Assembly (NCBI GenBank): GCA_017499595.2
Contig: JAFIQS020000014.1
Location: 1-64,000 of the forward strand
Origin: Psilocybe cubensis
Lineage: Eukaryota
DNA length: 64,000 nucleotides
Reading direction: 5' to 3'
Part shown: one piece after another, positions 1-16,090 of the stretch
Layout: every line of letters begins with the position of its first letter
Numbering within the stretch: position 1 is the stretch's first letter
The notes under the pieces: model-generated
The model's database searches: none
What the model was told of the DNA's origin: nothing
The model's input: only the letters and a program-made list of their open reading frames with translations
Position numbers and translations under genes: made by a program

Positions 1-169
1 TAAACCCTAAACCCTAAACCCTAAACCCTAAACCCTAAACCCTAAACCCTAAACCCTAAACCCTAAACCCTAAACCCTAAACCCTAAACCCTAAACCCTA
101 AACCCTAAACCCTAAACCCTAAACCCTAAACCCTAAACCCTAAACCCTAAACCCTAAACCCTAAACCCT
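1..169 (+). repeat. Terminal telomeric tract (CCCTAAA)n, i.e. TTTAGGG on the G-strand
   Basis: About 24 perfect CCCTAAA heptamers from base 1. Confidence 0.98.
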
Positions 170-311: not shown

Positions 312-810
312 CTTCCGAACGGCATGTGATTGTGAAGGGCCGGATCTAATTTAGTACATGGGAAAAGTTACTTAGTACTTCGGGAAAAGTTCCTTAGTAC
401 CGTGGAAACATTTTTGATGGACCGGATCATGAACTGTCCAATTAAGATTCACAACAATCAATCATTCTATTGTTTGATTGTTAGGTAAGGACCCAGGTAA
501 GCTATTTATACTCTAGACATGTGAATATTCCCATGTCGCGGTTACTCGGAGCCACGTAACCAGAGTAATCTATATCCATGTGATTCACATCACAGTCAAT
601 AACCCACGATGTCAAAGAACAAAAGTGTTGGATCCACTTTTGACAGGTTACCATGTGCCACATCGACCCGTGACACTCTGTTCATCAGAGACCTGTCTAA
701 CTTGACAATAAACATTGACAGATTTGTGATAGTCGGTAAGATACATGACAGCTGCGCAGCATCACTTCACGCGCTGTCATCGGATGTCTAGAACATTCCT
801 TCTAAGAATA

Positions 811-1802
811 GCCACTGAAGAGTCTATAAAGACGAAAGGGCTGGTTGTTGGGATCCCCCAACAGCCCTCAAGTACTCGTCCTCTCCCAAACTCCTGCCGC
901 TTGTGCCTTCCCAACTCATCCGGGAGCCCTTTCGTCACTGATCTTGCCCTTGACTCGGGGACGTTTCATCGACATGTTGGCTGCCTCACGGCAAGCGGGG
1001 CCCTTTTTCTTTCACTCGCTCACGCCTTCTATGTTGGGTTACGGAGGTCATACAAACTCGTTTTAGTCTAGCTGCGGGGATATCCAGCTATGATGACTTT
1101 GTAATTCGAGGGCGCGCAGTTCTTCAATGGGTATGGACATCAGGTGAGAGTACACTGGGGGTTGTCAGGACCAGCTCTGCTGGATACGCTCCTGGCAAGT
1201 CGGTTGCAGCCGGCGACACTACCGAATTGCTGGGACGTCCTAAAGCTTGTGGGTACCGCCGACCGCTGGAAACAGCCTAGGCACCGGTGGCGACCGGGTA
1301 TGGTAACAATCCCCAAGATTCAGCGAAAGCTGGAATGGATAATCAGCAGCGAATCCGTAACGGTCACGCCGACGGAAGCGTTCAACGACTAGGTGGTAGT
1401 GGGGTCTTCGGATCTTAAGATATAGTCTTGGGAGTGGGGAAACCCACATCTGGTATCTAAACCGCGCCTCGCTGCTTACGAGGACGGCCCGAAGTCCAGA
1501 ACCGCTTAAAACGCGGGTGACCCGGCCTCCCCTTAGTAAAGGGAGTTAACACAAGGATGGACAAATAGTTCGTCGCCGGAAATGAACCTGTGGCTGTAAT
1601 GGCTGATGTGGCGCCCCTTGGTAAAGGGCTTAAAGGGTATTAGCCTGCCATGTCCAATGGCATGAGAGTGTCCCTTGGTAAAGGACTTAATAGGCAATAG
1701 CCTGCTCTTTTGTCATGAGCGGTATGTAGTGATCGTTTGCCTGTACGGTAGCGCCCATTGCTTGCACTGGTCCACGCCCGTAAAAAATCACGAGCCGCTG
1801 GC
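811..1802 (+). ncRNA. Type I hammerhead ribozyme split by a group I intron (exon halves 811-868 and 1798-1802)
   Basis: gcca-CTGAAGA-gtct ataa agac-GAAA-gggctg...cagcccT | insertion | Ctggc; joining 868 to 1798 regenerates the intact copy at 6157-6219. Confidence 0.9.
869..1797 (+). ncRNA. Group I intron (IC1-like), 929 nt, no homing endonuclease ORF
   Basis: P element AATTGCTGGG (~1225), Q AATCAGCAGC (~1341), R GTTCAACGACTA (~1380), S AAGATATAGTC (~1417); P3 cactacc/ggtagtg; P7 gacta/tagtc; P8 gggtc-ttcg-gatct; P9 gtggg-gaaa-cccac; 5' exon ends in U868, intron ends in G1797; IGS gggggttgt (1157-1165) pairs with acagccctc (861-869). Confidence 0.9.
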
Positions 1803-1911
1803 CTTCTTTCTATTTCAAACTCACAGTTTAAACTAGTCGCTCGCACCTCGCTTCGCTCGGTGCTCGCTCCCCCCCTAAACCCAACGACTTTGCTATCACC
1901 CATCAGTTACC

Positions 1912-3070
1912 ATGTCATCCCAATACTCTGCTGCATTCTCTCGTGCCATGTCCCCTACCCTGGACGCACTCACCCAGGCCGTCGTCAACAACACTGTCTT
2001 CGGCGTCAACGATGAAGCAGGCCGCCATAACGCTCTTATCGACGAGCTGGCCACTGTGGTCATCAAAAAAATAGCTGAGTGCCGCTCCGTTGACCAAGTC
2101 ATAGACTGCGTCTTTTTTGACTATCGTGCTGCCCTCAGGGAGTTTCTCCTCAACCTCGCATCGTGGTGCGACAAGAGGGAAACAGTCAAGGCTAGCCTCG
2201 AGCGCCTTGAATCTGCCGTTAGCGCAGGCAACACGCCCAATCGCCTTAAGGTGAAGGCACCCGAGTTCCAACTTACGAAGGAATTCGCGGATGCCGGGTC
2301 AGCGGAGGCTCTTCGAGTCTCCACTACGTTCTCTTCCGCTCGTGATGCCTTCCAAAAGGCAATTAACGACGGCGCCGTTCAGGCGAAAAAGGACGAGCTG
2401 GCTTTTTGGGATGATAAATGCGCGCTCAACTCTTGCTACGAAGCTGCTGCCCTCATCGTTAAGGCAACTTACGATGATCGCAAATCCAGCTACAAGCTCC
2501 CTGTTTTCTCTACAGACAACAAGGGAGTTCGACGTATAGCAGAGTGGGTAGTGTCTCCGCAAAAGAAAGCCGAATGCAGTGCGCTGCAAACTATACTGCC
2601 GGCGATCTTTTCTCATATCAAACAGATTGTCAACATGCGCCACCGCGCCTTGGCAATTAAGATTGAGAAAAAGCGGACGACTGCGGCAACAGCCGATGTC
2701 GAGATGGCCGATGCGACCAAACCAGGTCCATCGATTCAATCCCTTATTGATAAGGGCTTGAATGCACGTCTCAAAAAGCTCAACCTTGGATCTGTGGGCA
2801 AGAAGGCAAGTTTTCGTAACCCTTCACCCATAATTCTGGACACTAATTATTACTCTAATTACCCAGACTTTGTCTGGCCAGAATTCGTCCAAGGCTCCTC
2901 AACCTCAGGCCAGGAAAGCTGGCCCTTCGAAACCCAAGTCGTCGTCGACGCCTTCGCAGAGGAAGCCTCAAACCAAGGCTTCCAACAAGGTCGACAACAA
3001 GAAGAAAGGGAAGGGGAGAGCTCCCGTCAAGAACAACGATCCAAAGGGAAAGGGAAAGGCAAGAGCCTAG
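1912..3070 (+). CDS. Predicted spliced ORF1 protein (join 1912-2805, 2867-3070; 365 aa) with Lys-rich C-terminal tail
   Basis: Spliced frame reads ...VGKK-TLSGQNSSKAPQPQ...KKKGKGRAPVKNNDPKGKGKARA*; open in all 7 copies. Confidence 0.65.
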
Positions 3071-5445
3071 ACGCGCGGTCTACTGTAGCATCATTTACGT
3101 CGGTGAGACCCGCCTTCCCCAACTCTATTCCTGACGATATACTCACCATGACTAAAACAGACGCAGTTTCTTTTGTACACCTCAATACCCCGATTTCATT
3201 CTTATTGGCTGGCCAGTATAGATCTAGTGTACACTGTAGTCCTGGTGTTTCGGTCCCTGTTGATGTAGCAAATGATTTATCTCTTGGACTCAATTATATG
3301 TTTTTTACACTGCCTTCTAAAAATCTGATCATGCAAGCATGGAATGATTTTCAACGAAGAATAAGATGGCGTATCTATTTTTTGTTTAAAGAAGGCATGA
3401 ATAAACCTTTCGATCCAGACTATGGAGTAAGCTCTAAAAAGAAAGAGAAACCTCCAATGTTACCGCAATTTATGGAACTTGGCCTTTCAATGGGACGTCG
3501 GTACGTTATTAAAACGATCGCAAGTATCCCGGAAGAAGCCCTTAAAGAGATGCGAAAGCACGCGTTCTCTCCTAAAAGGGACAAGATCCAAAAGTTTCTT
3601 TTCGATAACAACTATGTTATTACGATGACAGATAAGAATCTTGGCCTCGCGGTGTCTGAACGCGACTGGATATTAAGGAATGAGCTCAATCTTCTTGAAG
3701 ATGAACGCAACTACGAAGAGTTAGAATTCGAAGTTGCGCAAGAAGTTATGAAGAGCAAAATGATTCAGATGCAAACTCTCGCACGTACCGTCGAAGATGA
3801 ACATCTGTTTCTATTTGAACTTGGGTTGTCTCGATTCTTTCTATCGAATGTACCGGAAGACGGATCATCGTTCAAGTATCCTCAATTTCATGGTATACCT
3901 AAAATCCACAAGAAACCTACTGGATTTAGGCCCATAATTCCGTGTCACTCTGTAGTATTTAATCCTGCAGCCAAGTTTGTATCAAAAGAGCTTAAGCCGA
4001 TTATTAAATCGACTCCTTCAATCATTCACGGAACGAAGGATCTCTTTACGAGATTAAGCCAATTGCGTATAGACCCCAAACGACAATGGTATTTTGTCAC
4101 CGGGGATGTAGTTGCTTTCTATCCCAATATTCCGTTGGACTTGTGCATCGAAATCGTTTGTAATATGTACGAGGAATGGTTACTCAACGCTTCGGAAGAG
4201 AACACTGCATTAGCCCATATTAATCCAAATTCGTTAGAGAATAACTTGGTTAAATTGGGCATCTTTAAACGTGCTATCGAGATTGGCAATACGCAATTGA
4301 TAACACAACATGGGTCTAGATATTTTAGACAAAAAAATGGCCTCGCAATGGGCGTCGCGGATTCTCCGGACCTTGCTAACCTCTTTGGAGCCCATTTTGA
4401 AATAAAGTCAAAAATCTTAGACCACCCAAACGTGGCCTTCTATGGAAGGTACATCGACGATTGTTTCGCAATTGTTTACGCCGAGTCCGAAGCACTTGCA
4501 CTTAATCTTATTAAAGAAACAATAAAGTTCGATGGTTGTGTTATCGAATGGGCTGTTTCCTCGTCGGGATGTCAATTTCTCGATGCTTTCATATTCAAGG
4601 AGTCTGGAAAACTTCATTGGAAGCCATTTGTCAAGACAGGAAACAACCGAGAACGAGTTCCATGGGTATCACATCATCCTTTGGACGTCAAACGTGGCGT
4701 CTACATTGGAGAGTTATCCAGGTTAGCCGTGCTATGTAGTACTAAGGAAATCTACATCGGAGCAATTAGAGACCTTAACGCTCTCTATTTGATGCGCGGT
4801 TATCCCGAAAACCTAGTCATGTCTTGGTGTAAGAAGAATATACAAGAACGTTGGGAAAAGCGATTCGCTTTACGAGTCGCAGAGCACGACGAATCCATTC
4901 TTGTACTTAAAACCAGATTTGATCAGGTATGGAATTGGTTTTCAGCTGCTGAACTTGGAAAGACTGTTACCGAGTACTGGTCGGCATGGTATGAACATGC
5001 CGAGAAAGGTCTGTATAGTGCAGACTCGTCCAGACCCCTTATCAAACCAGATCCAAATTACGTTCACGACCTCGATGATGTTCGCCCGGAGCTGTTCACA
5101 CAGATCCTCGTGGACGGAGAAACTGAGTTCGTACCGGATTTGAGGAAGATAGGACTACTCGGAAGTCGTTGGATAGTATCGCGAAAGCGCAATACTAATC
5201 TTTTCGACCTTGCAAATGTGTGGAAGAAAACAGTCTTTCGTAAACTGGATGAAAACATCGCTGAAAAAGGTGGTGTTGTTCCCGAAACTCAAAACGTTAA
5301 TGAAACTTATCATTCTGCTCTAGTTGAAGCTGCTGAACAGATAAGTATCGAAAGTGATAACGAGATAATACTTCATAGACGTTCAATCTCACAAGAGAGG
5401 GAACATCCAGAATTCGGCAGAATATCCAAATTTTACAACCGATGA
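1912..5445 (+). CDS. Penelope-like element ORF1-reverse transcriptase polyprotein (1177 aa), no GIY-YIG endonuclease
   Basis: PLE-type RT motifs FHGIPKIHKKPTGFRPII, TGDVVAFYPNIP, RQKNGLAMGVADSPDLANLF, YGRYIDD, QFLD; helical/coiled-coil-like N-terminus; no GIY-YIG seen at the C-terminus. Confidence 0.95.
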   Translation: MSSQYSAAFSRAMSPTLDALTQAVVNNTVFGVNDEAGRHNALIDELATVVIKKIAECRSVDQVIDCVFFDYRAALREFLLNLASWCDKRETVKASLERLESAVSAGNTPNRLKVKAPEFQLTKEFADAGSAEALRVSTTFSSARDAFQKAINDGAVQAKKDELAFWDDKCALNSCYEAAALIVKATYDDRKSSYKLPVFSTDNKGVRRIAEWVVSPQKKAECSALQTILPAIFSHIKQIVNMRHRALAIKIEKKRTTAATADVEMADATKPGPSIQSLIDKGLNARLKKLNLGSVGKKASFRNPSPIILDTNYYSNYPDFVWPEFVQGSSTSGQESWPFETQVVVDAFAEEASNQGFQQGRQQEEREGESSRQEQRSKGKGKGKSLDARSTVASFTSVRPAFPNSIPDDILTMTKTDAVSFVHLNTPISFLLAGQYRSSVHCSPGVSVPVDVANDLSLGLNYMFFTLPSKNLIMQAWNDFQRRIRWRIYFLFKEGMNKPFDPDYGVSSKKKEKPPMLPQFMELGLSMGRRYVIKTIASIPEEALKEMRKHAFSPKRDKIQKFLFDNNYVITMTDKNLGLAVSERDWILRNELNLLEDERNYEELEFEVAQEVMKSKMIQMQTLARTVEDEHLFLFELGLSRFFLSNVPEDGSSFKYPQFHGIPKIHKKPTGFRPIIPCHSVVFNPAAKFVSKELKPIIKSTPSIIHGTKDLFTRLSQLRIDPKRQWYFVTGDVVAFYPNIPLDLCIEIVCNMYEEWLLNASEENTALAHINPNSLENNLVKLGIFKRAIEIGNTQLITQHGSRYFRQKNGLAMGVADSPDLANLFGAHFEIKSKILDHPNVAFYGRYIDDCFAIVYAESEALALNLIKETIKFDGCVIEWAVSSSGCQFLDAFIFKESGKLHWKPFVKTGNNRERVPWVSHHPLDVKRGVYIGELSRLAVLCSTKEIYIGAIRDLNALYLMRGYPENLVMSWCKKNIQERWEKRFALRVAEHDESILVLKTRFDQVWNWFSAAELGKTVTEYWSAWYEHAEKGLYSADSSRPLIKPDPNYVHDLDDVRPELFTQILVDGETEFVPDLRKIGLLGSRWIVSRKRNTNLFDLANVWKKTVFRKLDENIAEKGGVVPETQNVNETYHSALVEAAEQISIESDNEIILHRRSISQEREHPEFGRISKFYNR
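2806..2866 (+). other. Putative 61-nt GC-AG spliceosomal intron inside the ORF (also 7465-7525, 12608-12668, 17660-17720, 25246-25306, 30368-30428, 35675-35735)
   Basis: AAG|GCAAGT donor, CTAAT branch motifs, CCCAG| acceptor, AT-rich; removal joins codon 298 to the +1 frame ORF ending at 3070. Confidence 0.7.
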
Positions 5446-5555
5446 AAAGAATACTAGCGCGTAAGGCGTAAAGCATTAGAAAAAAACCCTAACCGTAAGT
5501 ATTCCTTGCTATAAAGTAACAAACATCTACTTACAAGCAACACTTTGGATTAAAT

Positions 5556-5630
5556 AGCTAAACCTAAACCCTAAACCCTAAACCCTAAACCCTAACCTAA
5601 CCCCAACCCTAAGCTAACTAAGTCTAACCT
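5556..5630 (+). repeat. Element-encoded degenerate reverse telomeric repeats in the 3' UTR (present in every unit)
   Basis: gctaaacctaaaccctaaaccctaaaccctaaaccctaacctaaccccaaccctaagctaactaag. Confidence 0.9.
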
Positions 5631-6156
5631 TAGTAGGAAGTAAGGTAGGCGTGTGAACTTCCGAACGGCATGTGATTGTGAAGGGCCGGATCTAATTTAG
5701 TACATGGGAAAAGTTACTTAGTACTTCGGGAAAAGTTCCTTAGTACCGTGGAAACATTTTTGATGGACCGGATCATGAACTGTCCAATTAAGATTCACAA
5801 CAATCAATCATTCTATTGTTTGATTGTTAGGTAAGGACCCAGGTAAGCTATTTATACTCTAGACATGTGAATATTCCCATGTCGCGGTTACTCGGAGCCA
5901 CGTAACCAGAGTAATCTATATCCATGTGATTCACATCACAGTCAATAACCCACGATGTCAAAGAACAAAAGTGTTGGATCCACTTTTGACAGGTTACCAT
6001 GTGCCACATCGACCCGTGACACTCTGTTCATCAGAGACCTGTCTAACTTGACAATAAACATTGACAGATTTGTGATAGTCGGTAAGATACATGACAGCTG
6101 CGCAGCATCACTTCACGCGCTGTCATCGGATGTCTAGAACATTCCTTCTAAGAATA

Positions 6157-6219
6157 GCCACTGAAGAGTCTATAAAGACGAAAGGGCTGGTTGTTGGGAT
6201 CCCCCAACAGCCCTCTGGC
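6157..6219 (+). ncRNA. Type I hammerhead ribozyme, intact (predicted cleavage after C6215)
   Basis: Helix I gcca/tggc, CUGAAGA, helix II gtct/agac, GAAA, helix III gggctg/cagccc, CUC triplet. Other intact copies start at 6399, 10816, 15962, 16596, 21007, 23449, 24182, 28593, 29304, 33714, 34611, 39033. Confidence 0.92.
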
Positions 6220-6290
6220 CTTCTTTCTATTTCAAACTCACAGTTTAAACTAGTCGCTCGCACCTCGCTTCGCTCGGTGCTCGCTCCCAC

Positions 6291-6348
6291 CCTAAACCCT
6301 AAACCCTAAACCCTAAACCCTAAAACCTAAACCCTAAACCCTAAACCC
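6291..6348 (+). repeat. Interstitial telomeric tract between units 1 and 2
   Basis: (CCCTAAA)n with one variant. Confidence 0.93.
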
Positions 6349-9300
6349 ATCACTTCACGCGCTGTCATCGGATGTCTAGAACATTCCTTCTAAGAATAGC
6401 CACTGAAGAGTCTATAAAGACGAAAGGGCTGGTTGTTGGGATCCCCCAACAGCCCTCTGGCCTTCTTTCTATTTCAAACTCACAGTTTAAACTAGTCGCT
6501 CGCACCTCGCTTCGCTCGGTGCTCGCTCCCCCCCTAAACCCAACGACTTTGCTATCACCCATCAGTTACCATGTCATCCCAATACTCTGCTGCATTCTCT
6601 CGTGCCATGTCCCCTACCCTGGACGCACTCACCCAGGCCGTCGTCAACAACACTGTCTTCGGCGTCAACGATGAAGCAGGCCGCCATAACGCTCTTATCG
6701 ACGAGCTGGCCACTGTGGTCATCAAAAAAATAGCTGAGTGCCGCTCCGTTGACCAAGTCATAGACTGCGTCTTTTTTGACTATCGTGCTGCCCTCAGGGA
6801 GTTTCTCCTCAACCTCGCATCGTGGTGCGACAAGAGGGAAACAGTCAAGGCTAGCCTCGAGCGCCTTGAATCTGCCGTTAGCGCAGGCAACACGCCCAAT
6901 CGCCTTAAGGTGAAGGCACCCGAGTTCCAACTTACGAAGGAATTCGCGGATGCCGGGTCAGCGGAGGCTCTTCGAGTCTCCACTACGTTCTCTTCCGCTC
7001 GTGATGCCTTCCAAAAGGCAATTAACGACGGCGCCGTTCAGGCGAAAAAGGACGAGCTGGCTTTTTGGGATGATAAATGCGCGCTCAACTCTTGCTACGA
7101 AGCTGCTGCCCTCATCGTTAAGGCAACTTACGATGATCGCAAATCCAGCTACAAGCTCCCTGTTTTCTCTACAGACAACAAGGGAGTTCGACGTATAGCA
7201 GAGTGGGTAGTGTCTCCGCAAAAGAAAGCCGAATGCAGTGCGCTGCAAACTATACTGCCGGCGATCTTTTCTCATATCAAACAGATTGTCAACATGCGCC
7301 ACCGCGCCTTGGCAATTAAGATTGAGAAAAAGCGGACGACTGCGGCAACAGCCGATGTCGAGATGGCCGATGCGACCAAACCAGGTCCATCGATTCAATC
7401 CCTTATTGATAAGGGCTTGAATGCACGTCTCAAAAAGCTCAACCTTGGATCTGTGGGCAAGAAGGCAAGTTTTCGTAACCCTTCACCCATAATTCTGGAC
7501 ACTAATTATTACTCTAATTACCCAGACTTTGTCTGGCCAGAATTCGTCCAAGGCTCCTCAACCTCAGGCCAGGAAAGCTGGCCCTTCGAAACCCAAGTCG
7601 TCGTCGACGCCTTCGCAGAGGAAGCCTCAAACCAAGGCTTCCAACAAGGTCGACAACAAGAAGAAAGGGAAGGGGAGAGCTCCCGTCAAGAACAACGATC
7701 CAAAGGGAAAGGGAAAGGCAAGAGCCTAGACGCGCGGTCTACTGTAGCATCATTTACGTCGGTGAGACCCGCCTTCCCCAACTCTATTCCTGACGATATA
7801 CTCACCATGACTAAAACAGACGCAGTTTCTTTTGTACACCTCAATACCCCGATTTCATTCTTATTGGCTGGCCAGTATAGATCTAGTGTACACTGTAGTC
7901 CTGGTGTTTCGGTCCCTGTTGATGTAGCAAATGATTTATCTCTTGGACTCAATTATATGTTTTTTACACTGCCTTCTAAAAATCTGATCATGCAAGCATG
8001 GAATGATTTTCAACGAAGAATAAGATGGCGTATCTATTTTTTGTTTAAAGAAGGCATGAATAAACCTTTCGATCCAGACTATGGAGTAAGCTCTAAAAAG
8101 AAAGAGAAACCTCCAATGTTACCGCAATTTATGGAACTTGGCCTTTCAATGGGACGTCGGTACGTTATTAAAACGATCGCAAGTATCCCGGAAGAAGCCC
8201 TTAAAGAGATGCGAAAGCACGCGTTCTCTCCTAAAAGGGACAAGATCCAAAAGTTTCTTTTCGATAACAACTATGTTATTACGATGACAGATAAGAATCT
8301 TGGCCTCGCGGTGTCTGAACGCGACTGGATATTAAGGAATGAGCTCAATCTTCTTGAAGATGAACGCAACTACGAAGAGTTAGAATTCGAAGTTGCGCAA
8401 GAAGTTATGAAGAGCAAAATGATTCAGATGCAAACTCTCGCACGTACCGTCGAAGATGAACATCTGTTTCTATTTGAACTTGGGTTGTCTCGATTCTTTC
8501 TATCGAATGTACCGGAAGACGGATCATCGTTCAAGTATCCTCAATTTCATGGTATACCTAAAATCCACAAGAAACCTACTGGATTTAGGCCCATAATTCC
8601 GTGTCACTCTGTAGTATTTAATCCTGCAGCCAAGTTTGTATCAAAAGAGCTTAAGCCGATTATTAAATCGACTCCTTCAATCATTCACGGAACGAAGGAT
8701 CTCTTTACGAGATTAAGCCAATTGCGTATAGACCCCAAACGACAATGGTATTTTGTCACCGGGGATGTAGTTGCTTTCTATCCCAATATTCCGTTGGACT
8801 TGTGCATCGAAATCGTTTGTAATATGTACGAGGAATGGTTACTCAACGCTTCGGAAGAGAACACTGCATTAGCCCATATTAATCCAAATTCGTTAGAGAA
8901 TAACTTGGTTAAATTGGGCATCTTTAAACGTGCTATCGAGATTGGCAATACGCAATTGATAACACAACATGGGTCTAGATATTTTAGACAAAAAAATGGC
9001 CTCGCAATGGGCGTCGCGGATTCTCCGGACCTTGCTAACCTCTTTGGAGCCCATTTTGAAATAAAGTCAAAAATCTTAGACCACCCAAACGTGGCCTTCT
9101 ATGGAAGGTACATCGACGATTGTTTCGCAATTGTTTACGCCGAGTCCGAAGCACTTGCACTTAATCTTATTAAAGAAACAATAAAGTTCGATGGTTGTGT
9201 TATCGAATGGGCGGTTTCCTCGTCGGGATGTCAATTTCTCGATGCTTTCATATTCAAGGAGTCTGGAAAACTTCATTGGAAGCCATTTGTCAAGACAGGA

Positions 9301-10951
9301 AACAACCGAGAACGAGTTCCATGGGTATCACATCATCCTTTGGACGTCAAACGTGGCGTCTACATTGGAGAGTTATCCAGGTTAGCCGTGCTATGTAGTA
9401 CTAAGGAAATCTACATCGGAGCAATTAGAGACCTTAACGCTCTCTATTTGATGCGCGGTTATCCCGAAAACCTAGTCATGTCTTGGTGTAAGAAGAATAT
9501 ACAAGAACGTTGGGAAAAGCGATTCGCTTTACGAGTCGCAGAGCACGACGAATCCATTCTTGTACTTAAAACCAGATTTGATCAGGTATGGAATTGGTTT
9601 TCAGCTGCTGAACTTGGAAAGACTGTTACCGAGTACTGGTCGGCATGGTATGAACATGCCGAGAAAGGTCTGTATAGTGCAGACTCGTCCAGACCCCTTA
9701 TCAAACCAGATCCAAATTACGTTCACGACCTCGATGATGTTCGCCCGGAGCTGTTCACACAGATCCTCGTGGACGGAGAAACTGAGTTCGTACCGGATTT
9801 GAGGAAGATAGGACTACTCGGAAGTCGTTGGATAGTATCGCGAAAGCGCAATACTAATCTTTTCGACCTTGCAAATGTGTGGAAGAAAACAGTCTTTCGT
9901 AAACTGGATGAAAACATCGCTGAAAAAGGTGGTGTTGTTCCCGAAACTCAAAACGTTAATGAAACTTATCATTCTGCTCTAGTTGAAGCTGCTGAACAGA
10001 TAAGTATCGAAAGTGATAACGAGATAATACTTCATAGACGTTCAATCTCACAAGAGAGGGAACATCCAGAATTCGGCAGAATATCCAAATCTTACAACCG
10101 ATGAAAAGAATACTAGCGCGTAAGGCGTAAAGCATTAGAAAAAAACCCTAACCGTAAGTATTCCTTGCTATAAAGTAACAAACATCTACTTACAAGCAAC
10201 ACTTTGGATTAAATAGCTAAACCTAAACCCTAAACCCTAAACCCTAAACCCTAACCTAACCCCAACCCTAAGCTAACTAAGTCTAACCTTAGTAGGAAGT
10301 AAGGTAGGCGTGTGAACTTCCGAACGGCATGTGATTGTGAAGGGCCGGATCTAATTTAGTACATGGGAAAAGTTACTTAGTACTTCGGGAAAAGTTCCTT
10401 AGTACCGTGGAAACATTTTTGATGGACCGGATCATGAACTGTCCAATTAAGATTCACAACAATCAATCATTCTATTGTTTGATTGTTAGGTAAGGACCCA
10501 GGTAAGCTATTTATACTCTAGACATGTGAATATTCCCATGTCGCGGTTACTCGGAGCCACGTAACCAGAGTAATCTATATCCATGTGATTCACATCACAG
10601 TCAATAACCCACGATGTCAAAGAACAAAAGTGTTGGATCCACTTTTGACAGGTTACCATGTGCCACATCGACCCGTGACACTCTGTTCATCAGAGACCTG
10701 TCTAACTTGACAATAAACATTGACAGATTTGTGATAGTCGGTAAGATACATGACAGCTGCGCAGCATCACTTCACGCGCTGTCATCGGATGTCTAGAACA
10801 TTCCTTCTAAGAATAGCCACTGAAGAGTCTATAAAGACGAAAGGGCTGGTTGTTGGGATCCCCCAACAGCCCTCTGGCCTTCTTTCTATTTCAAACTCAC
10901 AGTTTAAACTAGTCGCTCGCACCTCGCTTCGCTCGGTGCTCGCTCCCCCCC
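6348..10951 (+). mobile_element. Penelope-like element unit 2 (short 5' pLTR, no group I intron)
   Basis: Near-identical to unit 1 but lacking the 929-nt insertion. Confidence 0.92.
6571..10104 (+). CDS. PLE ORF1-RT polyprotein (1177 aa)
   Basis: Same RT motifs as unit 1. Confidence 0.95.
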   Translation: MSSQYSAAFSRAMSPTLDALTQAVVNNTVFGVNDEAGRHNALIDELATVVIKKIAECRSVDQVIDCVFFDYRAALREFLLNLASWCDKRETVKASLERLESAVSAGNTPNRLKVKAPEFQLTKEFADAGSAEALRVSTTFSSARDAFQKAINDGAVQAKKDELAFWDDKCALNSCYEAAALIVKATYDDRKSSYKLPVFSTDNKGVRRIAEWVVSPQKKAECSALQTILPAIFSHIKQIVNMRHRALAIKIEKKRTTAATADVEMADATKPGPSIQSLIDKGLNARLKKLNLGSVGKKASFRNPSPIILDTNYYSNYPDFVWPEFVQGSSTSGQESWPFETQVVVDAFAEEASNQGFQQGRQQEEREGESSRQEQRSKGKGKGKSLDARSTVASFTSVRPAFPNSIPDDILTMTKTDAVSFVHLNTPISFLLAGQYRSSVHCSPGVSVPVDVANDLSLGLNYMFFTLPSKNLIMQAWNDFQRRIRWRIYFLFKEGMNKPFDPDYGVSSKKKEKPPMLPQFMELGLSMGRRYVIKTIASIPEEALKEMRKHAFSPKRDKIQKFLFDNNYVITMTDKNLGLAVSERDWILRNELNLLEDERNYEELEFEVAQEVMKSKMIQMQTLARTVEDEHLFLFELGLSRFFLSNVPEDGSSFKYPQFHGIPKIHKKPTGFRPIIPCHSVVFNPAAKFVSKELKPIIKSTPSIIHGTKDLFTRLSQLRIDPKRQWYFVTGDVVAFYPNIPLDLCIEIVCNMYEEWLLNASEENTALAHINPNSLENNLVKLGIFKRAIEIGNTQLITQHGSRYFRQKNGLAMGVADSPDLANLFGAHFEIKSKILDHPNVAFYGRYIDDCFAIVYAESEALALNLIKETIKFDGCVIEWAVSSSGCQFLDAFIFKESGKLHWKPFVKTGNNRERVPWVSHHPLDVKRGVYIGELSRLAVLCSTKEIYIGAIRDLNALYLMRGYPENLVMSWCKKNIQERWEKRFALRVAEHDESILVLKTRFDQVWNWFSAAELGKTVTEYWSAWYEHAEKGLYSADSSRPLIKPDPNYVHDLDDVRPELFTQILVDGETEFVPDLRKIGLLGSRWIVSRKRNTNLFDLANVWKKTVFRKLDENIAEKGGVVPETQNVNETYHSALVEAAEQISIESDNEIILHRRSISQEREHPEFGRISKSYNR

Positions 10952-11012
10952 TAAAACCCCTAAACCCTAAACCCTAAACCCTAACCCTAAACCCTAAACC
11001 CTAAACCCTAAA
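10951..11012 (+). repeat. Interstitial telomeric tract
   Basis: (CCCTAAA)n with variants. Confidence 0.93.
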
Positions 11013-11602
11013 AGCCGGCGACACTACCGAATTGCTGGGACGTCCTAAAGCTTGTGGGTACCGCCGACCGCTGGAAACAGCCTAGGCACCGGTGGCGACC
11101 GGGTATGGTAACAATCCCCAAGATTCAGCGAAAGCTGGAATGGATAATCAGCAGCGAATCCGTAACGGTCACGCCGACGGAAGCGTTCAACGACTAGGTG
11201 GTAGTGGGGTCTTCGGATCTTAAGATATAGTCTTGGGAGTGGGGAAACCCACATCTGGTATCTAAACCGCGCCTCGCTGCTTACGAGGACGGCCCGAAGT
11301 CCAGAACCGCTTAAAACGCGGGTGACCCGGCCTCCCCTTAGTAAAGGGAGTTAACACAAGGATGGACAAATAGTTCGTCGCCGGAAATGAACCTGTGGCT
11401 GTAATGGCTGATGTGGCGCCCCTTGGTAAAGGGCTTAAAGGGTATTAGCCTGCCATGTCCAATGGCATGAGAGTGTCCCTTGGTAAAGGACTTAATAGGC
11501 AATAGCCTGCTCTTTTGTCATGAGCGGTATGTAGTGATCGTTTGCCTGTACGGTAGCGCCCATTGCTTGCACTGGTCCACGCCCGTAAAAAATCACGAGC
11601 CG
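11013..11602 (+). ncRNA. 5'-truncated second copy of the group I intron (catalytic core to omega-G; P1/IGS missing)
   Basis: Matches 1208-1797 by eye; ends ...cacgagccG|ctggc. Confidence 0.9.
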
Positions 11603-15244: not shown

Positions 15245-16090
15245 AAAGAATACTAGCGCTTAAGGCGTAAAGCATTAGAAAAAAACCCTAACCGTAAGTA
15301 TTCCTTGCTATAAAGTAACAAACATCTACTTACAAGCAACACATTGGATTGAATAGCTAAACCTAAACCTAAACCCTAAACCCTAAACCCTAAACCCTAA
15401 CCTAACCCCAACCCTAAGCTAACTAAGTCTAACCTTAGTAGGAAGTAAGGTAGGCGTGTGAACTTCCGAACGGCATGTGATTGTGAAGGGCCGGATCTAA
15501 TTTAGTACATGGGAAAAGTTACTTAGTACTTCGGGAAAAGTTCCTTAGTACCGTGGAAACATTTTTGATGGACCGGATCATGAACTGTCCAATTAAGATT
15601 CACAACAATCAATCATTCTATTGTTTGATTGTTAGGTAAGGACCCAGGTAAGTTATTTATACTCTAGACATGTGAATATTCCCATGTCGCGGTTACTCGG
15701 AGCCACGTAACCAGAGTAATCTATATCCATGTGATTCACATCACAGTCAATAACCCACGATGTCAAAGAACAAAAGTGTTGGATCCACTTTTGACAGGTT
15801 ACCATGTGCCACATCGACCCGTGACACTCTGTTCATCAGAGACCTGTCTAACTTGACAATAAACATTGACAGATTTGTGATAGTCGGTAAGATACATGAC
15901 AGCTGCGCAGCATCACTTCACGCGCTGTCATCGGATGTCTAGAACATTCCTTCTAAGAATAGCCACTGAAGAGTCTATAAAGACGAAAGGGCTGGTTGTT
16001 GGGATCCCCCAACAGCCCTCTGGCTACTTTCCATTTAACTCCCAGTTTAAACTAGTCGCTCGCACCTCGCTTCGCTCGGTGCTCGCTCCC

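Follow-up and report, generated by a model that had tools for sequence, protein, structure and literature searches.

A group I intron in a telomeric retroelement carries a possible antisense clamp on the hammerhead ribozyme that it interrupts

We analyzed 64,000 nucleotides (nt) of the Psilocybe cubensis assembly GCA_017499595.2 (contig JAFIQS020000014.1, positions 1 to 64,000 of the forward strand; below, the window), where an array of retroelements with predicted hammerhead ribozymes lies at a chromosome end. One hammerhead is interrupted by a predicted group I intron, and within this intron positions 925-936 read AGCCCTTTCGTC, the exact reverse complement of 12 nt at 831-842 (GACGAAAGGGCT) in the intron's own 5' exon. 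We tentatively favor the reading that the intron encodes an antisense clamp on the neighboring hammerhead, with 925-936 as its perfect core.

In the mechanism that we propose, the mostly unpaired CUUUC at the center of the 12-mer would first pair with GAAAG, which is single-stranded in the hammerhead core. From there the duplex would spread and lock the catalytic core in an inactive state while the intron is present. At the window insertion, the 3' strand of helix III (ACAGCCCU), which belongs to the 5' exon, would lose its partner and could pair with the internal guide sequence at 1156-1165 to form P1. Splicing would remove the antisense along with the intron, and the rejoined hammerhead could then fold and cleave. 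Below we show the complementarity and how rarely chance produces it, the bounds of the intron, P1 and the conservation of position in a single distant homologue; we infer the formation of the duplex in RNA, the silencing of the hammerhead and the help to P1.

An antisense to the hammerhead core

A preliminary description of this DNA had pointed out the exact match between 925-936 and 831-842 and had placed its target in the GAAA core and in helix III (5' strand). Both statements hold, and both can be extended. The target also includes the GAC of helix II, and the complementarity is longer than claimed, with RNAduplex predicting 29 base pairs (bp) between 910-968 and 816-852 at -37.5 kcal/mol. 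These pairs fall into five collinear blocks (816-820/964-968, 822-825/959-962, 831-842/925-936, 843-844/920-921 and 847-852/910-915), which together target the CUGAAGA box, helix II on both strands, the GAAA core and helix III along its entire 5' strand. The antisense is located ~40-100 nt into the intron.

Compared with shuffled introns, the antisense at 925-936 is non-random. When the intron was shuffled with its dinucleotides preserved, 13 of 2000 shuffles gave a perfect complement of at least 12 nt between it and 794-868; among equal-size block pairs from the non-repetitive part of the window, 1 of 306 had one. Of 500 shuffles of 869-1147, only one attained the energy of the extended duplex, and none of 200 shuffles of the whole intron did. 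Among 918 intron windows, 925-936 is the best complement to the intron's own hammerhead core, and its central CUUUC is mostly unpaired (0.72-0.96) in a fold of the surrounding arm alone. The window contains a single copy of the 12-mer and 14 copies of its target, one per hammerhead and identical in all 14, so that the perfect match covers the invariant part of the hammerhead; the variable upper stem is matched for the local variant only.

The complementarity could nevertheless have no function, having arisen by chance or as a relic (e.g., left by a small inverted duplication, in an ancestral intron, of 831-852) that is now decaying neutrally. The feature was chosen post hoc from a 64-kb window, and at the frequencies given above the 12-mer alone is rare, not extreme. 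Positions 910-930 can also be read as the 3' strand of helix III copied with a 9-nt insert (CCCAAC...AGCCCU), as a duplication would leave. On the other hand, the long duplex is seldom reached by shuffled sequence, and the match in the window is perfect despite the divergence of the arm. In addition, a BLAST search of the insert against the rest of the window returned a 590-nt second copy of the intron and 12-nt matches, with no wider similarity of the arm to either element strand and none of the arm to the reverse strand outside the paired blocks. We therefore consider an absence of function somewhat unlikely.

The intron and the ribozyme that it splits

The preliminary description had placed the intron inside a hammerhead, and this placement is supported. 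Positions 1153-1449 match the full Rfam group I model RF00028 (model positions 1-253) with 70.9 bits against a gathering score of 50 (E ~1e-16), and the insert is cleanly absent from the other 13 copies. Thirteen of the 14 hammerheads read ...CAGCCCTCTGGC... without an intron, with the junction context ...CAACAGCCCTC^TGGCC..., and the copy at 794 reads ...CAACAGCCCT(868)|CAAGTAC ... CGAGCCG(1797)|CTGGCC.... The 5' exon ends at T868 (U868) and the last intron base is G1797, although the bounds may lie one base further right because a C is shared at the junction. By its core score, U-G pair in P1, terminal G and clean absence in paralogues, 869-1797 is classified as a group I intron, and self-splicing is predicted. 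It lies between U16.1 and C17, one base ahead of the hammerhead cleavage site, and thereby splits the ribozyme.

Within the catalytic core, P7 is found at ~1386-1391/1423-1427, the P8 loop is UUCG and the P9 loop is GAAA. P1 is a 10-bp helix of ACAGCCCU|CA (861-870) with UGGGGGUUGU (1156-1165) that sets U868 opposite G1158, and it continues into a 6-bp extension, GUACUC/GAGUAC (872-877/1148-1153). Because P1 and its extension frame 878-1147, this 270-nt arm sits on the tip of P1 with the antisense inside it, and the guide lies ~290 nt from the 5' splice site as a result. Stems at the base of the arm are formed by GUCC/GGAC (878-881/1136-1139) and CCCA/UGGG (885-888/1129-1132). Elsewhere in the intron, ACAAUCCCCA in the P5 region (1306-1315) is a 10-bp complement to the guide, and this pairing is a possible misfolding of, or regulatory alternative to, P1.

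The hammerhead itself is of type I by its core, its three helices and its open helix I, and it is predicted to self-cleave. The portion at 794-868 is laid out as the helix I 5' strand (~806-814), CUGAAGA (815-821), helix II (822-824/831-833), G12 A13 A14 (834-836) and the helix III hairpin (837-868). All core pieces are present, namely CUGAAGA, GAAA, the pair A837-U868 (A15.1-U16.1, U16.1 being T868) and C17. Helix II is GUC/GAC, helix III has 7 bp plus 5 bp, and helix I comprises GCCA/UGGC and AAGAA/UUCUU in intact copies. Matches to Rfam fall below the gathering thresholds (RAGATH-1-hammerhead, 25.3 against 56.3 in intact copies; Hammerhead_3, 19.5 against 48.5). Related fungal motifs are reported to be active in PMC4209133, which mentions a kinetic analysis of the one from Serpula lacrymans. 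The 14 hammerheads are all on the forward strand, each ~80 nt upstream of an element 3' end.

Helix III (AGGGCUG/CAGCCCU) contains exon bases that the guide needs, as the preliminary description had stated; these bases enter P1 (861-870/1156-1165). Under the nearest-neighbor model, helix III prefers a register shifted to 843-852/857-866 (10 bp) to the active one, even in intact copies. The intact copy at 6147-6222, for example, has a minimum free energy of -27.1 kcal/mol (z -2.94) with helix III shifted, and the hammerhead may be bistable on its own in these models. Coordinates of the main features are collected in Table 1.

Table 1. Positions of the antisense, the predicted ribozymes and the host element within the window
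Feature	Position	Strand	Description
12-mer reported earlier, AGCCCUUUCGUC	925..936	+	Intron positions 57-68; conserved island in comparison with metagenome locus L078
Target of the 12-mer	831..842	+	GAC (3' strand of helix II), then G12 A13 A14, then AGGGCU (helix III 5' strand, bases one to six)
Extended antisense to the 5' half of the hammerhead	910..968	+	Five blocks pairing with 816-852 (RNAduplex)
Predicted type I hammerhead, 5' part (5' exon)	794..868	+	Core motifs; sub-threshold Rfam match
Predicted group I intron, 929 nt	869..1797	+	Missing at exactly these bounds from the other 13 hammerheads
5' strands of P1 (861-870, across the splice site) and its extension (872-877)	861..877	+	From sequence; P1 probability 0.91 in the fold of 780-1170
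Arm at the P1 tip, 270 nt	878..1147	+	No long open reading frame; bounded by the P1 extension
3' strands of the extension (1148-1153) and of P1 (internal guide sequence, 1156-1165)	1148..1165	+	G1158 pairs with U868
Predicted group I catalytic core	1153..1449	+	P2, P2.1 and P3-P9 with a P5abc-type insertion; RF00028
3' extension after P9	1450..1797	+	Repeated CCCUUGGUAAAGG-type hairpins; partly alignable to introns of L078/L071 and L036
3' exon	1798..1882	+	C17, 3' strand of helix I (UGGCC...) and terminal region; ends ...GCTCGCTCCCCCCCTAAACCC, the element 3' end motif
Second intron copy, 5'-truncated, 590 nt	11013..11602	+	100% identical to 1208-1797; immediately follows telomere repeats at 10958-11013
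Terminal telomere-type repeats (CCCTAAA)n	1..167	+	Window begins at chromosome end
E1, most distal near-complete element copy	312..6289	+	Followed by telomere repeats
Reverse transcriptase open reading frame, 1177 amino acids	1912..5445	+	YIDD motif; reverse transcriptase motifs by eye

A distant homologue has a complement at the same intron position

A scan of metagenome contigs for a P7/P8 pattern gave 117 loci, most of them unrelated to the window intron, and only two (L078 and L071) had a long BLAST alignment to it. This alignment covers the 3' extension (68% over ~300 nt), which also matches an intron of locus L036 (92% over 39 nt). Both L078 and L071 carry, in order, a hammerhead, intron 1, intron 2, a reverse transcriptase (RT) open reading frame (ORF) and a second hammerhead, and their RT is 31% identical to that of the window. 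RTs 31-36% identical to the window RT were found at four of the 117 loci (L036, L078, L059 and L047); group I introns thus recur next to such elements.

Comparison of the two L078 hammerheads delimits intron 1 to 846 nt (...GACUUCGU|CAGAGC ... GAGCACG|CGCAAC), 13 nt 3' of the hammerhead cleavage site and with the same U|C...G|C pattern as in the window. The window and L078 introns therefore interrupt different U residues, 14 nt apart beside the hammerhead. In L078, the sequence AGCCGUUUUGCU begins at intron position 58, compared to 57 in the window, and is followed in both introns by a 22-nt spacer and GGACGUU. It pairs at 10 of 12 positions (9 contiguous, three of the pairs G-U) with GACGAAAUGGUG of its own hammerhead, which makes it the single best of 835 windows. 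A MAFFT alignment of the arms had placed the 12-mer against another L078 segment; we rejected it because the anchors (57 against 58, the 22-nt spacer and GGACGUU) fix the register.

Relative to the window pairing, one pair has gone from G-C to U-G by changes in both strands, three changes on one side only are neutral for pairing and two break pairs, a comparison of two lineages that is too small for a statistical covariation test. Contiguous pairing runs reach 12 and 9 in the cognate combinations and 7 and 5 when hammerheads and introns are swapped. A gapless comparison identifies three conserved islands, the 12-mer (8/12), GGACGUU (7/7), which is complementary to the helix II strand GUCU, and CCAAACUCC (9/10), separated by stretches in which 6/29, 5/22 and 7/28 positions are identical (21-25%). 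Judged by eye, the stems at the base of the arm, GUCU/AGAC and UACCA/UGGUA in L078, can be read as having undergone compensatory changes. The position-57 segment thus looks conserved between two intron lineages. That a top-ranking complement recurs at the same position between flanks of random-level identity argues against an absence of function. The preliminary description had made its proposal depend on conservation of the pairing in homologous introns, and in this single lineage 10 of the 12 pairs are kept. Because the L078 5' exon lies outside helix III, release of the exon is not the conserved role; binding or silencing of the hammerhead fits both introns.

We also considered whether AGCCCU (925-930) mimics the 5' exon as an internal binding site for the guide, for example a circularization site or a mask of the guide, with the hammerhead match a by-product of the self-complementarity of helix III. 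This segment can pair with G1158-U1163, ending in a U-G wobble, and the homologous segment of L078 holds UUUUGCUG, the longest complement (8 bp) to the L078 guide. Many windows, however, do equally well or better against the G/U-rich guide of the window intron (e.g., 10 bp at intron position 438), and the 12-mer stretch is not among the 12 listed guide-complement runs, all of which are at least 7 bp. The register also differs between the two introns, and UUCGUC (931-936) is accounted for only by the hammerhead core. We dropped the idea that the 12-mer is mainly a guide-target mimic in the window intron and hold a guide-binding site to be scarcely plausible.

Other candidate relatives were less informative. 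Introns lie beside or near related RTs at L036, L047, L059 and L042, with the 5' arm missing or of another family, and the hammerhead motif was not found at these loci. L019 was rejected as a relative (an AT-rich, phage-like contig with endonuclease-bearing introns), as was L118, the sole prokaryote-genome match to the arm pattern, which is a chance match in a bacterial gene and has no Rfam match. A pattern for the conserved 3' part of the arm had 0 matches in viral contigs.

Several further features of these loci are worth recording. The best-conserved part of the arm between the window and L078 intron 1 is GUUCUUCAAUGG...GACAU.AGGU (1115-1147), just before the 3' strand of P1. Hairpin modules of the form CCCUUGGUAAAGGGCUUAA.GGG.AUUAGCCUGC are repeated in the 350-nt extension after P9 (window 1540-1700) and kept in other element-associated introns, at 609-647 of L036 (92% over 39 nt) and ~8610-8480 of L078. 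In L078, the junction UUCGU|CAG within 9305-9210 (- strand) is complementary over 8 bp to the CUGACGAG box of the hammerhead next to it; the contig's other, intron-less hammerhead has CUGAUGAG instead. Intron 2 (L078 ~8277-7277, - strand; L071 ~8125-9130) matches the Rfam group I model with 76.5 and 79 bits and lies just past the RT start codon. With bounds set by eye at ...GCGUCCU|CAAAGG ... CCCCCUUUG|UAUGCG, its removal would restore the frame at codon 9, and its guide, GGGGCUUGU, resembles that of the window. Intron 2 thus appears to be a group I intron interrupting a nuclear-type protein-coding RT ORF.

Folding of the exon, the antisense and P1

Folds of nascent RNA (780-940 and 780-1000) give the 12-bp duplex a probability of 0.96-0.97. 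With this duplex alone, helix III re-pairs in the shifted register (843-852/857-866, -16.2 compared to -17.3 kcal/mol for the native hairpin) and the exon is still held. The bases of the shifted hairpin are the targets of blocks 910-915 and 920-921, and it is 910-915/847-852 that removes this hairpin. The earlier claim that the antisense opens helix III to favor P1 is only partly supported: the antisense covers the whole 5' strand once its additional blocks are included, and the 12-mer alone leaves a shifted hairpin on the exon.

We compared the energies of competing states of 780-1170. P1 only was computed at -126.1 kcal/mol, the 12-bp antisense with the shifted hairpin and no P1 at -123.1, the native hammerhead helices at -116.5, the 20-bp antisense without P1 at -113.8 and P1 together with the 20-bp antisense at -133.3, the last being a pseudoknot to which no penalty was applied. 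On these figures the 20-bp antisense is favorable only jointly with P1. Nested (pseudoknot-free) models cannot represent this combination, and the joint state is an estimate only.

The part of this claim that the antisense favors P1 is weakened, and the comparison of folds with and without 925-936 that the preliminary description suggested lends no support in nested models, in which the pseudoknot is not represented. P1 is ~10 kcal/mol better than the native hammerhead helices without any antisense, and replacing 925-936 never lowered P1. In 780-1170, the P1 probability is 0.91 for the wild type, 0.98-0.99 for two 925-936 mutants and 0.93 for an extended-block mutant; P1 in the mutants is similar or higher in pseudoknot-free folds of 780-1190, 780-1250 and 780-1460. 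In 780-1210, P1 has a probability of 0.00 in the wild type (antisense 0.96) and 0.58-0.63 in the two mutants of 925-936 alone.

These P1 results weigh against the clamp that we favor, and so do several others. The L078 duplex is weak (-10.1 kcal/mol, with a predicted-fold probability of 0.00), 277 of 500 shuffles do as well as the best whole duplex of L078, and common descent by itself would preserve some complementarity. L071 and L078, being near-identical, provide one independent homologue lineage. Before splicing, the split hammerhead is probably inactive anyway, and silencing at the window site is perhaps redundant. Finally, sequencing runs recorded as RNA contain at most 0.04 of the sampled words each, and spliced RNA would look the same as transcripts of intron-less copies. 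Two of these points, the lack of significance of the L078 duplex and the absence of a necessary role for the antisense in thermodynamic folds, also speak for an absence of function. Taken together, the modeling neither requires nor excludes the proposed switch.

The mutual exclusion of antisense and P1 in nested ensembles, most evident in 780-1210, could instead point to a splicing attenuator, in which the 12-bp duplex and the shifted hairpin compete with P1 and leave some transcripts unspliced for copying by the retroelement. Unspliced RNA has indeed been a template at least twice, in the element copy E1 and in the truncated second intron copy. This exclusion is, however, a property of nested models because both helices can coexist as a pseudoknot, and the outcome flips with the chosen 3' end, P1 being dominant in 780-1170. 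Blocks 910-921 also pair with bases of the shifted hairpin, arguing against its stabilization. We find an attenuator very doubtful.

The host element and the spread of the intron

The host appears to be an endonuclease-less, telomere-attaching Penelope-like element, with features that fit the Athena/Coprina type. Copies of ~5 kb, several of which are truncated at the 5' end, are arrayed head to tail up to 39220, and each copy ends ...GCTCGCTCCCCCCC, followed by telomere repeats. Full units encode an ORF of 1176-1177 amino acids with RT motifs. The part of the RT region that was searched (amino acids 560-1060) is 98-99% identical to proteins named Psilocybe cubensis, and the RT region alone scores below the threshold for RVT_1 (27.6 bits against a cut-off of 29.6). 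Pfam scans detected no endonuclease domain in the RT ORF and no match for the whole ORF, and there was no sequence match in the PDB. The window shows the traits of telomere attachment, with head-to-tail, often 5'-truncated copies and a hammerhead near reverse-complement telomere repeats, and it agrees with the available text on fungal Penelope-like hammerheads and endonuclease-less telomere-attaching clades (PMC8557442, PMC4209133).

E1 contains part of an upstream 3' untranslated region (UTR), the hammerhead with the full intron, the terminal region, the RT ORF, a 3' UTR, an intact hammerhead and the 3' end; by this arrangement, its template is read as a read-through, unspliced RNA. The second intron copy starts directly after telomere repeats, which marks it as a 5'-truncated cDNA that was made from an unspliced RNA and joined to a chromosome end. 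With the full intron in E1, this makes at least two occasions on which unspliced RNA served as template.

Several copies extend upstream of the hammerhead cleavage site (e.g., 6326-6400 and 312-793), so their RNA templates were not cut by the 5' hammerhead; because the 3' end motif is retained, the 3' hammerhead was also uncut, which raises the question of when the hammerheads act. Each unit also has an internal telomere-like repeat run in its 3' UTR, ~590 nt upstream of the hammerhead and distinct from the repeats at copy junctions (5569-5595, 10228-10254, 15374-15400 and later units). The telomere units themselves differ, with the 7-mer CCCTAAA in the window (1-167) and CCCTAACCCTAACC, of 6-mer type, at the element end of L078 (~2850, - strand), implying that the two intron-bearing elements come from hosts with different telomere repeats.

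The intron was found in sequencing runs of several organisms. One DNA contig (X9) joins 868 directly to 1798. Among the listed contigs of four runs, X11 alone crosses 925-936 (it spans 900-1101), and its 12-mer is identical. X10 holds a diverged variant of the arm, with 13 differences within 1012-1164, and ends short of the 12-mer; at 905-945, X9 and X10 are not covered and X12 hardly at all, so that they are uninformative on the 12-mer.

These observations on spread bear on another use of the antisense, as a guide acting in trans. The excised intron would be tethered to the hammerhead core of intron-less element RNAs and would open their fold, reverse splicing would follow at a nearby U, and the element RT would fix the insertion. 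In keeping with this idea, the perfect 12-mer coincides exactly with the hammerhead part that is invariant in 14 of 14 copies, the variable upper stem being fitted to the local variant only, and two related introns keep the position-57 segment while occupying U residues 14 nt apart. That RNA with the intron has been reverse transcribed and integrated is shown by the truncated copy after telomere repeats. Engineered trans-splicing ribozymes, moreover, gain efficiency and can use poorly accessible sites when antisense is added, according to the available text of PMC6155759. The intron-less copies, however, could equally be losses through reverse-transcribed spliced RNA. The geometry is also crossed in comparison with engineered guides, since the antisense lies 5' of the guide and yet binds upstream of the splice site, and the comparison covers two lineages only. 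We give a trans-acting guide little credence. A wider version would have a nuclear group I intron lineage living on telomere-attaching Penelope-like elements, with the position-57 antisense as a homing device that melts the hammerhead, reverse splicing at a U close by (U16.1 in the window, and in L078 a U 13 nt past the cleavage site) and the element RT writing the insertion into the chromosome end. We regard this homing scenario as unlikely.

Discussion

In its RF00028 core with a P5abc-type insertion, U-G wobble, terminal G and pairing of guide and 5' exon, the window intron resembles the Tetrahymena-type introns of nuclear ribosomal DNA (rDNA), and by these features it would belong to subgroup IC1. 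It differs from rDNA introns in its host, a hammerhead in a telomeric retrotransposon, and in an arm that carries antisense to an upstream exon structure.

Two known arrangements offer partial parallels to the clamp that we propose. Twin-ribozyme group I introns (GIR1 and GIR2) contain a second ribozyme inside the intron that caps the mRNA of an endonuclease. They likewise place two ribozymes, whose folds need coordination, in one transcription unit; here, by contrast, the intron lies within the second ribozyme and splits the hammerhead. Rfam found no GIR1 match in the whole window at gathering scores or in 780-1900 at E-values up to 10. In Tetrahymena pre-rRNA, Woodson and co-workers reportedly found that an exon hairpin, P(-1), competes with P1 and that an upstream antagonist shifts the balance. 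Both competitors there are exon rRNA, whereas here the hairpin is hammerhead helix III and the antagonist is intronic.

The hammerhead resembles those of Penelope-like elements, including the Athena and Coprina clades, in being of type I with a long helix III and in lying in the terminal repeat of a fungal element, and the element shares with these clades head-to-tail copies parted by telomere repeats and the apparent lack of an endonuclease, as far as the available text of PMC4209133 and PMC8557442 describes them. That text does not mention a group I intron in or beside a hammerhead. The nearest functional analogue in print is the engineered trans-splicing Tetrahymena ribozyme, which likewise forms a ribozyme-substrate duplex in addition to P1. 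In the available text of PMC6155759, the engineered antisense is designed, located at the ribozyme 5' end and directed to the substrate 3' of the splice site. The window antisense, in contrast, is natural, lies inside the arm of P1, would pair 5' of the splice site and aims at the catalytic core of another ribozyme.

According to the available text of two reviews (PMC3679873, PMC8395846), group I introns in the nucleus are known only from rDNA, and one of them (PMC3679873) states that experimental evidence is still lacking for a pathway in which reverse splicing is followed by reverse transcription and integration into the genome. Our search of the full-text literature found no published report of a group I intron in a Penelope-like element, in a hammerhead or in the nucleus outside rDNA, although a mention in the primary clade papers or their supplements is possible. 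The predicted group I intron described here thus resides in a nuclear retrotransposon and not in rDNA. Mutation of its antisense offers a way to study how one transcript accommodates two ribozymes and, possibly, how the intron locates its target. If the homing scenario were true, this would be the first natural system with a complete reverse splicing, reverse transcription and integration route for the spread of group I introns, and a case of one ribozyme targeting another.

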